From: Bellilinea caldifistulae
GTDB lineage: Bacteria > Chloroflexota > Anaerolineae > Anaerolineales > Anaerolineaceae
NCBI RefSeq assembly: GCF_001306055.1
Contig: NZ_LGHJ01000018.1
Location: 90,001-122,000, forward strand
Reading direction: 5' to 3'
Length of the DNA: 32,000 nucleotides
Under the pieces are notes generated by a model. The model searched no databases, was not told where the DNA came from, and was given only the letters and a program-made list of their open reading frames with translations. Numbering within the stretch: the stretch's first letter is position 1; each line of letters begins with the position of its first letter. A program made the translations under genes and the position numbers. Shown in pieces: positions 9,419 through 21,478 of the stretch.

Positions 9419-9420
9419 GG

Positions 9421-9807
9421 TACCGGGCTGGCCTGTAAGCCGCATTCTGTCCACCCGCAGGGTATCCCGATTGGGACGGCTGCGGGTGGGGTGATCATCT
9501 CTCTTGACCGGCTGTTACCAGACGGTTCTATGCAGCCTACCCGGAACTCAAACGGGACGAGCAGCCCCTCGTTCCTGCTTGGCTTTGCTCCCGGCGGGGG
9601 TTGCCTGGCAGCCGCATTACTGCGGACTCCGGTGGTCTCTTACACCACCTTTTCACCCTTGCTGCCTGAAACAGGCAGCGGTTTGTTTCTGTGGCCCGAT
9701 CCAGCAGGTTACCCCGCTCCGGGTGTTACCCGGCGCCGTGCTCTGTGGAGTGCGGACTTTCCTCAGCAGCCGAAAATGACTGCCGCGATCACCCGGCCAG
9801 CCCGGTT
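9421..9807 (-). ncRNA. rnpB: RNase P RNA, bacterial type A
   Basis: The reverse complement carries the conserved type-A blocks in the correct order. These are AACCGGGCUGGCC...GAGGAAAGUCCGCACUCCACAGAGCA...GGGUAACACCCGG...AAGGGUGAAAAGGUGGUGUAAGAGACCACC...GGAGCAAAGCCAAGCAGG...CCGGGUAGGCUGC...ACAGAAUGCGGCUUACAGGCCAGCCCGG. P1 forms from CCGGGCUGGCC (5') and GGCCAGCCCGG (3'). The ends are approximate, within about 5 nt. Confidence 0.92.
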
Positions 9808-9814
9808 AATATAG

Positions 9815-9882: not shown

Positions 9883-10641
9883 ATGCGTACACCTTTGATT
9901 GCTGGAAATTGGAAGATGAACAAAACTGTGGAACAGGCACGCGCGCTGGTAGCCGAAATGTTACCCGGTTTGCAAGCGGTTCCGTCGGTCGAGCGGGTGC
10001 TTTGTCCGCCGTTTACGGCGCTGATGCCCATTTCAGCCATGCTGGTAGGGACAGAGATTGGACTGGGGGCGCAAAACATGCACTGGGAAGCCCAGGGAGC
10101 CTTTACGGGTGAGATTTCACCAGGGATGGTTAAGGAATTTTGTCAGTACGTCATTTTAGGGCACTCTGAACGACGCACCTATTTTGGTGAAACCGATCAG
10201 ACGGTTAACAAAAAAGTTCATGCCGCACTGGCAAACCAGTTAATTCCGATTGTGTGTGTGGGAGAAACTCTGGAAGAAAACGAAGCTGGTCGAACTGCGG
10301 AAGTGGTTGCCCGTCAGGTTTGTGATGGATTGAAGGATGTATCCAAAGATCAGGCCGCCAAGCTGGTGATTGCCTACGAACCGGTTTGGGCAATTGGCAC
10401 CGGCAGGGCAGCCAGCGGTGAAGTGGCCAATCGGGTGCTGGCCGAAATTATTCGCCCGGCGTTGGCAGGTCTGTTTGATACGCCAACAGCCCAAAAAATT
10501 AGAATTCTATATGGCGGTTCGGTCACGGCCGCGAACGCCCAAGAGTTTTTTGGTCAACCTGAAATTGATGGCGCATTAGTGGGCGGCGCCAGCCTCAAAC
10601 CGGCTGAGTTTGTCAATATCGCCATTGCTGCTGCAAAGTGA
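9883..10641 (+). CDS. tpiA: Triosephosphate isomerase
   Basis: IAGNWKMN, GHSERR and AYEPVWAIGTG are all present. SD GGAGGGA lies upstream of the ATG. Confidence 0.96.
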   Translation: MRTPLIAGNWKMNKTVEQARALVAEMLPGLQAVPSVERVLCPPFTALMPISAMLVGTEIGLGAQNMHWEAQGAFTGEISPGMVKEFCQYVILGHSERRTYFGETDQTVNKKVHAALANQLIPIVCVGETLEENEAGRTAEVVARQVCDGLKDVSKDQAAKLVIAYEPVWAIGTGRAASGEVANRVLAEIIRPALAGLFDTPTAQKIRILYGGSVTAANAQEFFGQPEIDGALVGGASLKPAEFVNIAIAAAK

Positions 10642-11390
10642 GTTGGTTTCAACCCTATAGCGGGCTGATATTTTTTGTTCTAAGTCTGCTGATGTATCTG
10701 GTGGTGCAGCGCAGGCTGCACCGCGAGATACAGGGGGTTTTTCTTCTGTTGACGCGCAGCCCGGCGCTGGCTTTAGGGCTGTTTGCCTTGTTGTTCTTTC
10801 CCGGTGTTTTGATCCATGAAGCCAGTCACTGGATTATTGCCAAACTGGTGGGTGTACGCACCGGAAAATTTTCACTCATTCCGCAATTGCAGCCGGATGG
10901 CACTTTGCGATTGGGATATGTTGAAGCAGCGCCGGCGGATGTCTTCCGTGAGACTTTAATTGGAGCAGCTCCTTTTATGAGCGGTGTGCTGACCGTTGGC
11001 TGGATTGCTCTTTTCCCTTTGAAGATCATGTCCTTTGGGCAAATCCAATCTGTCGCAAGTTTTTGGAGCGCTCTGGCCGAAATGGTCAGCCTGCCGGATT
11101 TTTGGTTGTGGTTTTATCTGGCATTTACAATCAGTTCCACCATGCTGCCTTCGGCATCGGATCGGCGTGCATGGCTGCCAGCCCTGTTGATCATCAGTAT
11201 GATTTTGTTGATTTTTCTGTTGGCCGGTGCGGGCGATTGGTTGTTAGCCATGGTGGAGCCAATCAATCGAATTCTGAGCGCGTTAGCTCTTGTCTTTGTA
11301 TTTTCCTTGCTGCTGCATGTATGTTTGATTCTGCCTTTCTGGCTCTTGCGCAGGTTCCTGAGCCGGATCACTGGCTTGGAGGTAATTTGA
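10638..11390 (+). CDS. Polytopic membrane protein with an HExxH motif (putative membrane zinc metalloprotease-like)
   Basis: It has about 6 TM segments, and HEASH (LIHEASHWIIAKLVG) sits at the end of TM2. The GTG start overlaps the tpiA stop (GTGA). The family is not identified with confidence, and the start is uncertain. Confidence 0.55.
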   Translation: MSWFQPYSGLIFFVLSLLMYLVVQRRLHREIQGVFLLLTRSPALALGLFALLFFPGVLIHEASHWIIAKLVGVRTGKFSLIPQLQPDGTLRLGYVEAAPADVFRETLIGAAPFMSGVLTVGWIALFPLKIMSFGQIQSVASFWSALAEMVSLPDFWLWFYLAFTISSTMLPSASDRRAWLPALLIISMILLIFLLAGAGDWLLAMVEPINRILSALALVFVFSLLLHVCLILPFWLLRRFLSRITGLEVI

Positions 11391-15810: not shown

Positions 15811-16491
15811 TTGACTGTGCAACGAGATTTATGGGAGCAGTTGAATCGGGAAATTATTGGCTGCCGGCGCTGCCCGCGGTTGGTGGAATGGCGCGAGCAG
15901 GTGGCGCGGGAGCGCCGACGTGCTTTTGCAGATTGGGAATATTGGGGAAAACCGGTTCCGGGATTTGGGGATACTCAAGCGCGGGTGTTGATTGTCGGGC
16001 TGGCACCCGGTGCTCACGGTTCAAACCGTACCGGCAGAATGTTCACTGGTGATTCTTCCGGTGATTTTCTTTACAGGGCTTTGTATGAAGCCGGTTTTGC
16101 CAGCCAACCCACCGCAAATCATCAGGGAGACGGATTGAAGCTACAGGATGTTTTCATTACGGCGGTATGTCGCTGCGCTCCACCGGATAACCGTCCCCTC
16201 ACAGAGGAAATTCTCAATTGCCAGCCGTATCTGGTACAAGAATTGCGTCTGCTCAGCCAGCTGGAGGGAATTGTTGCATTGGGGCGAATCGCTTTTGAGC
16301 GGGTTCAAAAAATCCTGCGGCCCGAAAATCCACTGCTACCATTTCGGCATGGGGCATTTTATAAACCGGTAGATCATTTACCCTGGTTGCTGGCTTCGTA
16401 CCATCCCAGCCGGCAGAACACTCAAACCGGGAGGCTCACGCCAGCAATGTTTGCGGGTATCTGGCAGCGGGTGAGGGAAGAACTCGGTTAA
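15811..16491 (+). CDS. Uracil-DNA glycosylase, Fe-S family 4/5 (the motif suggests family 5, UdgB-like)
   Basis: Cys ligands occur at CRRCPRL and AVCRCAPP. Active-site motif A reads GLAPGAHGSNRTGRMFTGD, which is GLAPx rather than the family-4 GEAPG. Motif B is SYHPSRQNTQTGRLT. Confidence 0.8.
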   Translation: MTVQRDLWEQLNREIIGCRRCPRLVEWREQVARERRRAFADWEYWGKPVPGFGDTQARVLIVGLAPGAHGSNRTGRMFTGDSSGDFLYRALYEAGFASQPTANHQGDGLKLQDVFITAVCRCAPPDNRPLTEEILNCQPYLVQELRLLSQLEGIVALGRIAFERVQKILRPENPLLPFRHGAFYKPVDHLPWLLASYHPSRQNTQTGRLTPAMFAGIWQRVREELG

Positions 16492-17255
16492 GCGGGTTTT
16501 TGGGCGAAAAACCACACCCGTCCGGAGTCAGGTTGTGCCGGACTTTGGTCGCTCAGGTTACCAAGCCGATCCAGAACGCGAAAGCCAACCTTTTCCAATA
16601 GCGCTTGAATGGTGTCCATCGGATAGGCTCTTTGGGTGTGTATCTCTTCCCAGCGTTCCCATTGTTGGGTTTGATGATTGCGAATAAACAGGATTATGCG
16701 CAGCGATGCTTCGCTCTTCTCGTAATTACATGAAGGGATGTGAATTTCTAACAGGTCTTCATTGTCTTGAGGAATGTAAACGGGTTGTTGCTGCCAGCGT
16801 ACAAAAAGTCCGTAAAGGGTGTTCATATCAAACAGAAACCCTCCTTTGGCTTTCAGGGCGCGGAATACACGCCTGAAAACATTTTCTAAGTCGCTCACTT
16901 CCAGCAGATAATTCATGCTATCGAACCAGCAAGTAACCAGATCAAACTCATTGTCGAAATCTAAATTGCGCATATCGTCCTGAATCAGATGAAAAGGCTG
17001 GCCGGTTTGTCTTAAGCGCATTTCCGCCAGGCGAAGCATCTCTGCAGATTGATCCAGTCCAGTTACCTGCCAGTTGTTCAACAGCATCCCTTCCAGGAAG
17101 GTGCCTTCGCCGCAAGCAAGGTCAAGTAGCTTGCCGGATTTCGGCAAGGAAAATTTTTCCAAAAGGGATGGCAACAAGCTGAGCACCCATTTTGAAAATT
17201 CCGGGTAAGAACCGCGGCTATATACTTCCGCAAATCGTTGGTAAATTTGGTTCAT
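16488..17255 (-). CDS. Class I SAM-dependent methyltransferase
   Basis: It has motif I LLDLACGEGTF and a post-I acidic residue (VTGLDQS). Its stop overlaps the convergent UDG stop within TTAA. Confidence 0.8.
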   Translation of the reverse strand: MNQIYQRFAEVYSRGSYPEFSKWVLSLLPSLLEKFSLPKSGKLLDLACGEGTFLEGMLLNNWQVTGLDQSAEMLRLAEMRLRQTGQPFHLIQDDMRNLDFDNEFDLVTCWFDSMNYLLEVSDLENVFRRVFRALKAKGGFLFDMNTLYGLFVRWQQQPVYIPQDNEDLLEIHIPSCNYEKSEASLRIILFIRNHQTQQWERWEEIHTQRAYPMDTIQALLEKVGFRVLDRLGNLSDQSPAQPDSGRVWFFAQKPA

Positions 17256-17303
17256 ATTGGGATTCCTGATGAATAGTTTGTAAAACCTTTGTACAATTAT
17301 ATC

Positions 17304-17332
17304 TTGTTCCTGCTGACGGGGTGGTTTAGAAT
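17304..17332 (+). promoter_or_regulatory. Candidate promoter placing the transcription start at or next to the ATG of the 17339 gene (leaderless candidate)
   Basis: -35-like TTGTTC (17304-17309), a 17-nt spacer, then -10 TAGAAT (17327-17332). Only 6 nt (GAAGGT) separate the -10 from the ATG at 17339, and there is no SD. Confidence 0.3.
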
Positions 17333-17338
17333 GAAGGT

Positions 17339-18097
17339 ATGAAAAACCGAAAACTACTCTTTCTCATTCCAGTTGTTCTAATCCTGATCATTTTTAGCGG
17401 GTTTTCGATATGGGCTTACACTCCCTTAGGCCCAATGCCAGAGGCTCGCGCAGCGTTGATTAGCGATGATCAGGTTCAGATTCAACCGCAAGATGATTGG
17501 TGGATATTTACTCCCGTTGGGGATCAGGTTTCTAGAGGTTTGATCATTTACCCGGGTGGAAGAGTGGACTGGCGCTCTTACGCGCCCCTTGCCAGAGCCA
17601 TCGCTCAACGCGGCAACCTGGTTGCGTTGGTGCCGATGCCATTCAATCTAGCGGTTTTTTCACCTCAAAAAGGTTTGGAAATCATCCAGGCAAATCCCCA
17701 GATTGCTTACTGGGCAATTGGGGGGCATTCCCTGGGGGGTGCTATGGCGGCCAATTTTGTTTTTCAAAACTCCGGATTGGTACAGGGCTTAGTCTTGTGG
17801 GCTTCATACCCGGCAGAGAATAATTCTCTGAGCAATGTGCCGGTCAAGGTGATTTCAATATATGGGAGTGAGGATGGACTGGCGACGGTAGATGTCGTGG
17901 AAGCCTCTCGCGCCCTCCTGCCGCCGGATACCCATTGGGTTCAAATTGCTGGAGGGAATCACGCTCAATTTGGCTGGTATGGAGATCAGCCCGGTGATGG
18001 GGAAGCGCTGATCAGCCGTGAAGACCAGCAACTGATCGTTGTGGAGGAAACAGCACGCTTTCTGGAAAAAATTTCTTTCCATGGGGTGGACAAATGA
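17339..18097 (+). CDS. Membrane-anchored alpha/beta hydrolase
   Basis: It has an N-terminal TM helix (LLFLIPVVLILIIFSGFSIW) and the nucleophile elbow GGHSLGG. A late His lies in GGNHAQFG. Confidence 0.75.
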   Translation: MKNRKLLFLIPVVLILIIFSGFSIWAYTPLGPMPEARAALISDDQVQIQPQDDWWIFTPVGDQVSRGLIIYPGGRVDWRSYAPLARAIAQRGNLVALVPMPFNLAVFSPQKGLEIIQANPQIAYWAIGGHSLGGAMAANFVFQNSGLVQGLVLWASYPAENNSLSNVPVKVISIYGSEDGLATVDVVEASRALLPPDTHWVQIAGGNHAQFGWYGDQPGDGEALISREDQQLIVVEETARFLEKISFHGVDK

Positions 18098-19062
18098 AAC
18101 CGTTGCGACTGATTGGATTGTTTCTGCTGGTTGCTTTGCTGGTTGTCATCATTGGGCCGCTGATCATACCTGTACCACCTTTACCCGATGCCGTTCCCGT
18201 GACAGCACTGATGGACGATGACAGCCGTTTTGTCGAGGTCAAAGGGATTGATGTGCATTACAAACAATATGGCAGCGGTGAACCAGTGATGATTTTATTG
18301 CACGGTTTTGGGGCAAGCACCTTCTCATGGCGCGAGGTGATGCAGCCACTCGCCCAGTATGGGACGGTGATTGCTTTCGACCGGCCGGCTTTTGGTCTGA
18401 CGGAGCGCCCGATGCCCGGCGAGTGGTCAGGAGAATCACCCTATACCCTTAATTCCCAAATCCAATTGTTGATGGGTTTGATGGATCAGTTAGGCATCGA
18501 ACGTGCGGTGTTGATCGGAAATTCGGCGGGCGGTACCGTGGCTGCTGCGGCGGCGTTGGCCTATCCTGAGCGGGTAAGCGCTCTGGTATTGGTGGATGCG
18601 GCGATTTATGCTGGCGGGGGTGCCCCGGCCTGGATTCGTCCACTTCTGCGAACGCCTCAATTTGACCGTCTGGGTCCATGGTTTGCGCGTTCAATTGCCG
18701 GTGAGCAGGGGGATGCCTTCCTTCGGGCTGCCTGGCATGACCCTTCCAAAATCACCGAGGATATCATTCAGGGTTACCGCAAGCCTTTACAACTGGCTAA
18801 TTGGGATCGGGCTTTATGGGAGTTAACCAAAGCCAGCGGCGAATCCCAACTTGCGGGTCGGTTGAAGGAATTATCCATGCCGGTGCTGGTCGTAACCGGC
18901 GACGATGACAGGATTGTGCCAACTGCCGAGAGTTTGCGGCTGGCAAATGATATTCCCGGCGCAAAACTGGCTGTTTTTCCAGATTGTGGTCACGTCCCTC
19001 AGGAAGAGTGTCCGCAGTCGTTTTTGGAGGCAGTCGTTGGTTTTTTATCAGAAATTAAGTAA
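18094..19062 (+). CDS. Membrane-anchored alpha/beta-fold hydrolase
   Basis: It has an N-terminal TM helix, the HG oxyanion motif LLHGFGAS and the nucleophile elbow GNSAGG. The catalytic His lies in CGHVPQEE. The ATG overlaps the upstream stop (ATGA). Confidence 0.85.
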   Translation: MKPLRLIGLFLLVALLVVIIGPLIIPVPPLPDAVPVTALMDDDSRFVEVKGIDVHYKQYGSGEPVMILLHGFGASTFSWREVMQPLAQYGTVIAFDRPAFGLTERPMPGEWSGESPYTLNSQIQLLMGLMDQLGIERAVLIGNSAGGTVAAAAALAYPERVSALVLVDAAIYAGGGAPAWIRPLLRTPQFDRLGPWFARSIAGEQGDAFLRAAWHDPSKITEDIIQGYRKPLQLANWDRALWELTKASGESQLAGRLKELSMPVLVVTGDDDRIVPTAESLRLANDIPGAKLAVFPDCGHVPQEECPQSFLEAVVGFLSEIK

Positions 19063-19078
19063 CAAGGAGAATGGACAT

Positions 19079-19561
19079 ATGACAAAGCAATTAAAAACAA
19101 ACATTCCAGCCCCCGATTTTGAAGGAGTAGATACCCGCGGAAATACTGTGCAATTGTCCGACTTTCGCGGTAGAAAAATTATTGTTTTGGTTTTCAACCG
19201 CGGGTTTATGTGACCATATTGCGTGAAGCATTTGGCGCAGTTGCGTCAGGATTACGATGAGTTCACCCGTCGAGGTGCTGAAATTATTGCGTTAGGGCCG
19301 GATGGCCCACGTGCCTATCAGAGATTTTGGGAGTTGGAGAATATGCCGTTCATCGGAATGCCCGATATCCGTTCGAAAATTGCGGATAGCTATTATCAGG
19401 AAGTCAATTTGCTCAAACTGGGCAGGATGCCGGCGGTGTTCGTGATTGATAAAAACGGGATCATACGATACAAGCATTATGCTTCCTCGATGTCGGATAT
19501 TCCACAGAATGAAGAAGTCTTAAGGGTTATTGATCAAATCAATGAGGAGCGGTATGAGTAA
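19079..19561 (+). CDS. Peroxiredoxin-like (AhpC/TSA, thioredoxin-fold) protein with in-frame TGA at 19211-19213: candidate selenoprotein (U-P-Y-C)
   Basis: The ATG at 19079 lies 8 nt after AAGGAGA. Track ORFs 18905..19213 and 19223..19561 share one frame and are separated only by TGA plus 3 codons. Read-through gives 160 codons: ...IPAPDFEGVDTRGNTVQLSDFRGRKIIVLVFNRGFM[TGA]PYCVKHLAQLRQDYDEF...PAVFVIDKNGIIRY. The TGA sits at the first redox position of the family CxxC-type motif. Confidence 0.7.
19231..19250 (+). promoter_or_regulatory. Candidate bacterial SECIS hairpin
   Basis: The hairpin is UUUGGCGC-AGUU-GCGUCAGG: 8 bp, including 3 G-U pairs, with a 4-nt apical loop containing GU. It starts 17 nt after the UGA. 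This spacing and loop content are compatible with bacterial SECIS descriptions, but I did not fold or score it. Confidence 0.4.
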
Positions 19562-20186
19562 GACGGCATTAATCTGGGGAGTAACAGGCGGAATTGGCTC
19601 TGCGCTGGCAAAATTATTAGCGAAGGAGGGCTGGCAGGTTGCAGGTACGGCGAGAGATGAAATACAGGCTCGCCGAATTGTCCCCTTAGCCTTTGAGGTG
19701 GATGTTGCTAATCCATTTTCTGTGCGGGAAGGTGTGGCTGCCATTGCGCAGGAAATTATCAGCGTGGATTGGTGGGTTTTCGCAATCGGTGATATACTTT
19801 CAAAATCGGTCAGCGAGATGAGTGATGTGGAATGGCAGAAAATCTTAAACGCCAATTTGAACGGCGTTTTTTATGCAATCCACGAAAGTCAGGCACTCTT
19901 GAGTGACGGAGCGCCGGTTTACATCCTGGGGGCAGTCAGTGAACGAATGCGCCTTCCCGGTTTAGCGGCGTATGCTGCTGCAAAAGCCGGGGTGGAAGCC
20001 TTTGCTGAAGTACTGCGCAAGGAAATGAAAAGAACCGTTGTGGTTGTAAGGCCGGGAGCGGTCAACACCGATCTATGGAAAAAGGTACCCTTTCGGCTAC
20101 CCGCTAATGCACTCAACGCAGAAGATTTGGCTCGAAAGATGTATTCGGCATATCAAAATAACTATAAAGAATTGTTTTTGGATTAA
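19554..20186 (+). CDS. Short-chain dehydrogenase/reductase (SDR) family oxidoreductase
   Basis: It has the cofactor motif GVTGGIGSA and the catalytic YAAAK. The ATG at 19554 is preceded by GAGGAG and overlaps the upstream stop by 8 nt. Confidence 0.85.
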   Translation: MSKTALIWGVTGGIGSALAKLLAKEGWQVAGTARDEIQARRIVPLAFEVDVANPFSVREGVAAIAQEIISVDWWVFAIGDILSKSVSEMSDVEWQKILNANLNGVFYAIHESQALLSDGAPVYILGAVSERMRLPGLAAYAAAKAGVEAFAEVLRKEMKRTVVVVRPGAVNTDLWKKVPFRLPANALNAEDLARKMYSAYQNNYKELFLD

Positions 20187-21446: not shown

Positions 21447-21478
21447 TCGGCGGACAGGTGTGATTGCCTGCCCGCCGA
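21447..21478. terminator. Hairpin terminator between convergent genes (better U-tract for eno on the minus strand)
   Basis: TCGGCGGACAGG (21447-21458) pairs with CCTGCCCGCCGA (21467-21478): 12 positions with one A-C mismatch and an 8-nt loop. The minus strand continues with UUCUUUUAA. The plus-strand tail AAUAGUUUAG is weaker. Confidence 0.6.

Follow-up and report, generated by a model that had tools for sequence, protein, structure and literature searches.

Does the TGA at positions 19211-19213 of a 32,000-nucleotide stretch of Bellilinea caldifistulae DNA (NCBI RefSeq assembly GCF_001306055.1, contig NZ_LGHJ01000018.1, positions 90,001 to 122,000, forward strand; the window) end one open reading frame (ORF) shortly before another begins, or is it read as selenocysteine (Sec) inside a single peroxiredoxin (Prx)-like gene? 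An earlier note on this DNA had proposed a probable Sec. The analysis assigned a probability of about 0.9 to 19079-19561 being one intact gene for a Prx-fold redox protein, with UGA codon 45 predicted to be decoded as Sec. What that proposal led one to expect at the sequence level was observed: Cys in homologues, the same TGA in 80 of 80 relatives, a hairpin of the selenocysteine insertion sequence (SECIS) type and no sequencing error.

Reading frame, translation and source sequence

ORFs 18905..19213 and 19223..19561 lie in the same frame and are parted, as the ORF list and the sequence agreed with the earlier note, only by the TGA and three sense codons (CCA TAT TGC). The true start of the gene is ATG 19079; the 5' portion of the first ORF runs over the 3' end of the preceding hydrolase gene (Table 1). 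Translation from this ATG to TAA 19559-19561 with read-through gave 160 residues, the sole internal stop being residue 45 in the context VLVFNRGFM*PYCVKHLAQLRQDY (asterisk, TGA; motif GFM*PYC, or U-P-Y-C with Sec as U). With Cys placed at residue 45, Pfam AhpC-TSA (PF00578) gave one match across the TGA (residues 10-131; E 9.4e-26, 90.6 bits, cut-off 26) and Redoxin matched the read-through protein with E 6.8e-21. The earlier note had likewise read a single 160-codon thioredoxin-fold protein. Also as foreseen, automated annotation had split the gene: the gene calls of the GOMI-1 record cut the locus into products of 44 and 112 residues. Taken alone, the pattern is unremarkable: the window has 44 TGA-bridged ORF pairs of at least 40 codons on each side, by coordinates nearly all inside already identified window genes. 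Since such pairs are not rare, the case rests on homology and cross-species comparison.

The window was 100.000% identical to scaffold DF967971.1 of B. caldifistulae GOMI-1 (GCA_001050215.2; 3,698,317 bp) over 20,969 + 11,016 nt. Window position 1 is record position 1,730,378, which places the whole window at ~1,730,378-1,762,377 and the Prx-like gene at about 1,749,456-1,749,938. GOMI-1 is the type strain, a thermophilic anaerobic member of the Anaerolineae with a published single-scaffold assembly (PMC4574363). An independent Logan assembly of run DRR198553 carried the identical gene, TGA included. Near-identical contigs (99.56-99.99%) were found in ENA metagenome ERZ795108 and Logan run DRR198553.

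Conservation of the TGA and coding constraint

Orthologues were sought in one genome per GTDB species, at least 561 relatives in all, and the best 80 were kept; counts over 81 genes refer to the window gene plus these best 80 (51-86% amino-acid identity, distinct GTDB species). Nearly all of the 80 came from metagenome-assembled genomes (MAGs) of Anaerolineae/Chloroflexota, with Thermanaerothrix daxensis, Ornatilinea apprima and Leptolinea tardivitalis as isolates among them. Two orthologue contigs, L011 and L027, are labelled as Ignavibacteriae and Proteobacteria MAGs yet have Anaerolineae-like genes and synteny (UDG, hydrolase, enolase), and are probably mis-binned.

TGA occupied the same codon column in all 80 (motif R-[GS]-[FL]-x-TGA-P-[YFH]-C), answering in full the suggestion of the earlier note that other TGA-containing orthologues be looked for, and U-P-[YFH]-C was present in 81/81 genes. 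On the 5' side the frame was open for at least 44 codons in every gene, with a start codon 42-56 codons before the TGA, mostly 43-45, and column entropy over codons 2-44 was 0.85 at codon positions 1 and 2 versus 1.66 at position 3. On the 3' side C48 was invariant as an amino acid in 81/81, as was P46, the third position of which was free (CCA 28, CCG 28, CCC 23). Because P46 is invariant as an amino acid yet free at its third position, codons 46-48 are translated; these codons precede any possible restart codon, and the ribosome must therefore pass the TGA in frame. The pattern shows purifying selection at the protein level on both sides of the TGA, codons 46-48 included. TGA served as the terminal stop of 13 of 30 window genes and of 34 orthologues of the Prx-like gene itself, and is an ordinary stop in Bellilinea, without genome-wide reassignment.

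Cysteine orthologues and database proteins

Homologues were also searched for in a database of 5.8 billion proteins, where most close ones (57-88% identity) were C-terminal fragments of 96-122 residues. Full-length database homologues carried C or 'W' at the TGA column. Seven full-length Cys homologues stood in alignment A1, and the DNA of four Cys orthologues read TGT (L083, L087) or TGC (L084, L088) at this column, so that the alignment of the TGA with a homologue Cys, claimed earlier, held in protein and DNA alike. The Cys orthologues are single full-length proteins, and Cys forms with the same gene neighbourhood were rarer than TGA forms. L087 and L088 share the window neighbours, with a hydrolase and UDG upstream and enolase and CTP synthase downstream; the gene directly upstream in both is an alpha/beta hydrolase (Pfam Abhydrolase_5). 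On the Logan SRR16588181 contig of Cys orthologue L083, the gene directly upstream (L083:904-1707) encodes a heliorhodopsin (PF18761).

Database proteins P0018, P0019, P0022, P0028 and P0064 have 'W' at the Sec position. P0019 (L086) was the sole 'W' entry whose DNA was examined; its codon is TGA, and this short contig was evidently read with a genetic code in which TGA encodes Trp. Trp mistranslation on short contigs is a catalogue artefact that masks selenoproteins.

SECIS-type hairpin

The hairpin that the earlier note had reported 17 nt after the TGA, with GU in its apical loop, was borne out in position and in loop sequence: it begins 17 nt after the TGA, and its loop AGUU (19239-19242) lies 25 nt after the UGA. 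In the published model of bacterial SECIS elements the stem is 4-16 bp and the loop 3-9 nt, with a G within the first two loop positions, usually followed by G or U, a UGA-to-loop distance of 16-37 nt and a minimum free energy of -7.5 kcal/mol or lower (PMC13188914). The window hairpin, with an 8 bp stem, a 4-nt loop with G at position 2, a spacing of 25 and -8.4 kcal/mol, agreed with 4/4 of these constraints. A simple ungapped hairpin within the four constraints was found in 66/81 orthologues, and most of the others were short on energy alone, by 0.2-0.9 kcal/mol.

The core GGCGC-AGUU-GCG(C/U)C was kept in 72/81 sequences. In nine sequences with the peptide CRAQLARLR (L034, L049, L060, L062, L063, L064, L073, L074 and L079), GCGCGC-AGUUG-GCGCGC or a close variant was found 9 nt nearer the UGA, about 16 nt after the TGA; eight of the nine passed the hairpin test at spacing 16, and the AGUU loop sequence was kept. 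The shift suggests that the SECIS has moved naturally in this subgroup.

Across species the hairpin is nearly invariant, synonymous sites included, which adds conservation to the agreement with published constraints that the earlier note had asked to be checked. Third-position entropy was the lowest of the whole gene at codons 47-56 (0.78 vs about 1.56). Inside these codons Ala was encoded by GCG in 95/105 cases (223/845 elsewhere in the gene), Leu by TTG in 85/109 (240/1134 elsewhere) and Phe by TTC in 42/43 (344/673 elsewhere). The SECIS region was among the top 5% most stable 30-nt windows of its own gene in 75/81 genes and ranked first in 37, with a mean of -13.1 kcal/mol versus -5.0 elsewhere. 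Compensatory changes were scarce yet clean: within the main register, pair 30:43 was G-C in 68 sequences and C-G in 4, with no half-changes; G-C had become A-U in 1 sequence, and 14 had G-U.

The stem or the loop U was lost in 4/4 Cys orthologues examined. The peptide HLAQLRQ is identical in L083, but the codons TTA CGG disrupt the stem; L084 has the loop AGCU, and in L087 and L088 the hairpin is disrupted. Constraint on the hairpin is thus relaxed in the four Cys orthologues.

Between the UGA and the main stem there is a small auxiliary hairpin (UGC-N5-GCA). Its pairs 16:26, 17:25 and 18:24 (numbered by alignment A2) were present in 81/81, 80/81 and 73/81 sequences, respectively, with one compensatory U-A in L005. 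Codon 50 showed the inverse of the coding pattern, with an entropy of 0.65 at position 3 and 1.56 at each of positions 1 and 2; its third base is A2 column 24, mostly G, and pairs in this hairpin. The auxiliary hairpin may be part of an extended SECIS.

Protein fold and selenoprotein class

The best PDB sequence matches were BCP/PrxQ peroxiredoxins (3drn, 1.5e-14; then 3hjp, 2ywn and 2cx3), with ResA-type oxidoreductases next. In the alignments to 3drn and 2ywn, C48 fell on the peroxidatic Cys, U45 on the Thr of PxxxTxxC and Arg41 on the motif Pro. Arg116 was invariant in 81/81 and also present in alignments A1 and A3, and aligned to the Prx Arg region of the PDB alignments. An AlphaFold2 model of Cys orthologue P0002 (59% identical) had a predicted local distance difference test score of 94.5, and its active-site helix starts at residue 46, right after the Sec/Cys position. 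Foldseek placed this model at template modelling (TM) scores of 0.89 to 3hjp (Bcp4), 0.85 to 3drn (Bcp1) and 0.87 to 4x0x (AhpE), and at 0.73-0.76, below the peroxiredoxins, to ResA structures. The modelled structure points to a Prx fold.

Several named families were tried and rejected. Failure of the active-site motif test rules out a canonical peroxiredoxin: Arg41 takes the place of Pro and Sec45 that of Thr in 81/81 genes, only C48 of PxxxT/SxxC was kept, and all NCBIfam peroxiredoxin models scored far below their cut-offs. Sec-peroxiredoxin PrxU (NF040737) scored 24.9 against a cut-off of 270 and has TxxU where UxxC is found here. The SelL-related redox protein model (NF040769, SelL_rel_redox) scored 66.6 bits against a cut-off of 120, though it was the best NCBIfam model, and the ResA/TlpA-type CxxC oxidoreductase model NF002854 scored 51.1 bits against 170.

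Since Sec falls on the motif Thr and Cys48 on the peroxidatic Cys, the gene was placed in the Prx-like UxxC class and not among the Sec-peroxiredoxins. The earlier note had put Sec at the redox-active position of a Prx-like gene. This stands in that residue 45 is the first of the UxxC motif and Cys in homologues; it is refined in that residue 45 aligns with the Prx Thr, the peroxidatic position being Cys48. By its PF00578 match and motif, with the class compared by description, the gene is assigned to the described class of Prx-like thiol:disulfide oxidoreductases (UxxC), in agreement with the claim that it encodes a known kind of bacterial selenoprotein. That class (PF00578, UxxC/UxxU) is listed as 'predicted with high confidence', with WP_010940744.1 as prototype (PMC13188914). 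Its membership was counted as 8 in 2006 (PMC1794560) and as 32, from 28 organisms, in 2016 (PMC5029168), and 225 sequences were assigned to 'Prx-like 1' (pfam00578, UxxC) in the GOS survey (PMC2398784).

Evidence against Sec decoding and alternative explanations

A number of results weigh against the Sec assignment. tblastn with E. coli SelA, SelB and SelD gave no match in the window and 80 orthologue loci (1.29 Mb), and sel genes and tRNA-Sec were absent from the ~52 kb of the 3.70-Mb GOMI-1 scaffold that was read; the window has no tRNA genes, and no sel genes were found among its 30 proteins. For the hairpin, a shuffle control on the 7-bp main helix alone was not significant (81 sequences), RNAalifold on the 81-sequence alignment gave no useful consensus and two meaningless pairs only, and the fold of the 71 nt at 19205-19275 alone (z = -1.1) was not diagnostic. 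The window hairpin is only moderately stable, its fold being matched by 4.2% of the gene's other 30-nt windows. Main-stem covariation was sparse and the shuffle test not significant because the stem hardly varies; when the auxiliary helix was added and the weak outer pair dropped, 0/500 shuffles reached the observed value, relatedness inflating such tests. The significance of the hairpin derives from cross-species comparison and not from single-sequence folding.

The alternative that survives best is recoding of the UGA to another residue, either Cys via a Sec-like tRNA or Trp or Gly by near-cognate suppression. The inserted residue cannot be named from sequence alone, and some uncultured bacteria have been described in which tRNA-Sec-like tRNAs naturally recode Sec to Cys. 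We nonetheless consider this improbable. A bona fide tRNA-Sec (L079:5105-5199, minus strand, anticodon TCA, beside tRNA-Pro) was called by ARAGORN ~5 kb from a TGA-containing orthologue and scored 68.3 bits with Rfam RF01852 against a gathering score of 47; L079 was the only one of the 80 loci with a tRNA-Sec, and no selA or selB lay nearby on its 1.55-Mb parent contig. The cultured Anaerolinea thermophila UNI-1, of the same class, is reported to have SelD, SelA, SelB and four selenoproteins (PMC5029168, Tables S1 and S2). The loop of the conserved SECIS-type hairpin has the G-U signature characteristic of SelB-dependent decoding, and TGA is elsewhere an ordinary stop.

Less probable still, and in our view very unlikely, is a genuine stop at the TGA, with a 44-residue peptide and a C-terminal protein restarted at GTG 19223 or codon 52 as the two parts of a split thioredoxin-fold protein. 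Codon 52 is ATG in 51/81 genes, and gene callers start the fragment there. The remaining 30 genes have no ATG at codon 52, and GTG 19223 is not conserved, CGC being the usual codon 49. Amino-acid conservation extends over codons 46-48 (P-[YFH]-C), which follow the TGA and precede every potential restart. A split would also remove Cys48, which is conserved and corresponds to the catalytic Cys, and the Cys orthologues are not divided.

Decay of the gene into a pseudogene, or a recent nonsense mutation in it, with the two ORFs as remnants, is hardly credible. The 44- and 112-residue public calls would fit such decay, as would the ~100-117-residue fragments as which most database homologues appear. 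The same TGA was present in 81/81 genes down to about 50% amino-acid identity, with no frameshifts or extra stops and with purifying selection indicated on both sides; random decay does not yield such a pattern, as the earlier note had argued from the lone frameshift-free TGA of this gene. With in-frame read-through of the TGA, the pseudogene and the two-gene readings both fall.

Single-base errors do occur in draft genomes, but misreading of a TGC or TGT as TGA has a negligible chance here, since the isolate genome (DF967971.1) and the independent DRR198553 assembly carry identical genes, and the assemblies of 80 other species share the codon.

Proposed mechanism of Sec insertion and catalysis

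For decoding as Sec, we infer the standard bacterial pathway. The hairpin at 19231-19250, inside the LAQLRQD codons, would bind SelB carrying Sec-tRNA(Sec), and Sec would be delivered at UGA 19211 instead of termination. The predicted product is an 18-kDa Prx-fold redox protein in which Sec45 is the N-cap residue of the active-site helix, Cys48 follows three residues later and Arg116 is retained. Judging from fold and motif, the Sec45 selenolate may attack a peroxide or disulfide substrate; Cys48 would then resolve the intermediate to an intramolecular selenenylsulfide, from which a thioredoxin-type reductant would regenerate the enzyme.

A more far-reaching proposal is that the Anaerolineae proteins form a distinct, vertically inherited selenoenzyme subfamily, with Sec in place of the catalytic Prx Thr beside the retained Cys48, a U45/C48/R116 chemistry of its own, a family-specific, near-invariant AGUU-tetraloop SECIS moved by 9 nt in one subgroup and possibly a substrate linked to the upstream alpha/beta hydrolase, in contrast to a generic Prx-like thiol oxidoreductase. 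We regard this as doubtful.

Gene neighbourhood and other features of the window

The surroundings of the gene are ordinary chromosomal housekeeping genes. The window encodes a branched-chain amino-acid ABC transporter, RNase P RNA, TIM, MoaA, UPRT, RuvB, QueA, cyclophilin, UDG, two alpha/beta hydrolases, the Prx-like protein, a short-chain dehydrogenase (SDR), a DUF6992 hydrolase, enolase, CTP synthase, MutL and Sir2. Coordinates of the features discussed are given in Table 1.

Table 1. Positions of the Prx-like gene, its predicted recoding signals and other features in the window.
Feature	Coordinates	Strand	Basis or remark
Complete Prx-like coding sequence, predicted selenoprotein, 160 residues, Sec as residue 45	19079..19561	+	Translation, Pfam, orthologue starts
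In-frame TGA, predicted Sec codon U45, opens UxxC motif	19211..19213	+	TGA in 81/81 genes
Codons P46-Y47-C48, rest of UxxC motif	19214..19222	+	P46 and C48 invariant as amino acids, 81/81
Small auxiliary hairpin UGC-GUGAA-GCA	19220..19230	+	Alignment A2 columns 16-26, between UGA and main stem
SECIS-type hairpin UUUGGCGC-AGUU-GCGUCAGG	19231..19250	+	bSECIS constraints and cross-species conservation
Codon of Arg116, counterpart of conserved Prx active-site Arg (GRMPAVFVID)	19424..19426	+	Arg in 81/81
Shine-Dalgarno-like AAGGAG	19064..19069	+	9 nt 5' of ATG 19079; read from sequence
Alpha/beta-hydrolase gene	18094..19062	+	Pfam Abhydrolase_1; ends 16 nt before Prx-like start
SDR gene	19554..20186	+	Pfam adh_short; GOMI-1 record call L091:11461-12093
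Bacterial RNase P class A RNA	9420-9804	-	Rfam RF00010, 272.7 bits

An alpha/beta-hydrolase homologue lay directly upstream on the same strand in 35/80 loci, and the hydrolase is a probable operon partner. UDG, one or two alpha/beta hydrolases and the Prx-like gene formed a cluster on one strand (window 15811-19561) that recurred in 33-36/80 loci, and enolase and CTP synthase lay downstream on the opposite strand in 13-20 of 80. A functional link between hydrolase and redox protein is possible. The ATG of the SDR gene overlaps the Prx-like stop by 8 nt (19554-19561) and is preceded by GAGGAG at 19543-19548, an arrangement that suggests translational coupling of the two genes, through which Sec-dependent read-through could also gate SDR expression. 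The SDR neighbour was conserved only in the closest relatives among the 80 loci (L001-L003). Because the hydrolase gene ends so close upstream and the SDR start overlaps the stop, co-transcription of the Prx-like gene with the genes on either side is probable. At 21447-21478, after the DUF6992 hydrolase gene, lies a terminator-like hairpin.

A 107-aa ORF (9491-9814, plus strand) overlaps the RNase P RNA and is probably spurious. A 250-aa ORF (10638-11390, plus strand) between the TIM and MoaA genes had no Pfam match; gene calls for it exist in both the GOMI-1 record and the Logan contig.

Significance

The Bellilinea gene is a new or at least unannotated instance of a known selenoprotein class. 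BSepDB (2026) was compiled from searches for every known selenoprotein family, has about 57,000 entries for 16,621 species and may already list it; literature searches on Bellilinea with selenocysteine, or on DF967971, found nothing useful. The main value lies in correcting annotation, namely calls of one or two truncated fragments in a type-strain genome and in no fewer than 80 further species of Anaerolineae. Through such fragment and Trp calls, a widespread redox protein is misrepresented in protein catalogues. B. caldifistulae, an anaerobe that is in culture and publicly available, has a member of a class so far predicted with high confidence and could be used for 75Se labelling, SECIS-SelB studies and enzymology, and the near-invariant SECIS with its naturally shifted variant makes a tidy comparative data set. 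Knowledge of Sec decoding and of the kinds of selenoprotein that exist is unchanged by the finding.

Comparison with known systems

The Anaerolineae proteins share with the Prx-like UxxC selenoproteins the PF00578 domain, Sec as the first residue of UxxC, Cys homologues, a SECIS directly downstream inside the coding sequence and the status of predicted selenoproteins. The prototype of that class is from Geobacter; features particular to the Anaerolineae group are a near-invariant SECIS of its own (GGCGC-AGUU-GCGCC) and the conserved UDG/hydrolase neighbourhood. With BCP/PrxQ and AhpE (Sulfolobus Bcp1, 3drn, and Bcp4, 3hjp; M. tuberculosis AhpE, 4x0x) they share the fold, C48 and R116, whereas the PxxxT/SxxC of those enzymes is R-G-F-x-U-P-x-C in the Bellilinea group (81/81). 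PrxU of the Eubacterium acidaminophilum type is likewise a selenoprotein of the AhpC/TSA fold; its Sec replaces the peroxidatic Cys, whereas Sec of the Bellilinea protein would stand three residues earlier with that Cys kept. The model of SelL-related redox proteins (NF040769), a group allied to the SelL UxxU family, describes a Prx-like fold with a CxxC/UxxU-type motif at the same place, but its best-scoring stretch of the Bellilinea protein spans residues 10-89 only, and the protein is not a member.

Like the E. coli fdhF-type SECIS and the bSECIS model, the hairpin follows the UGA closely within the coding sequence and has a small loop with G and then U. It differs from the fdhF type in its tight 4-nt AGUU loop and GC-rich perfect stem, in which no bulged U was found. 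The shifted orthologue subgroup sits at the lower spacing limit of the bSECIS model (16).

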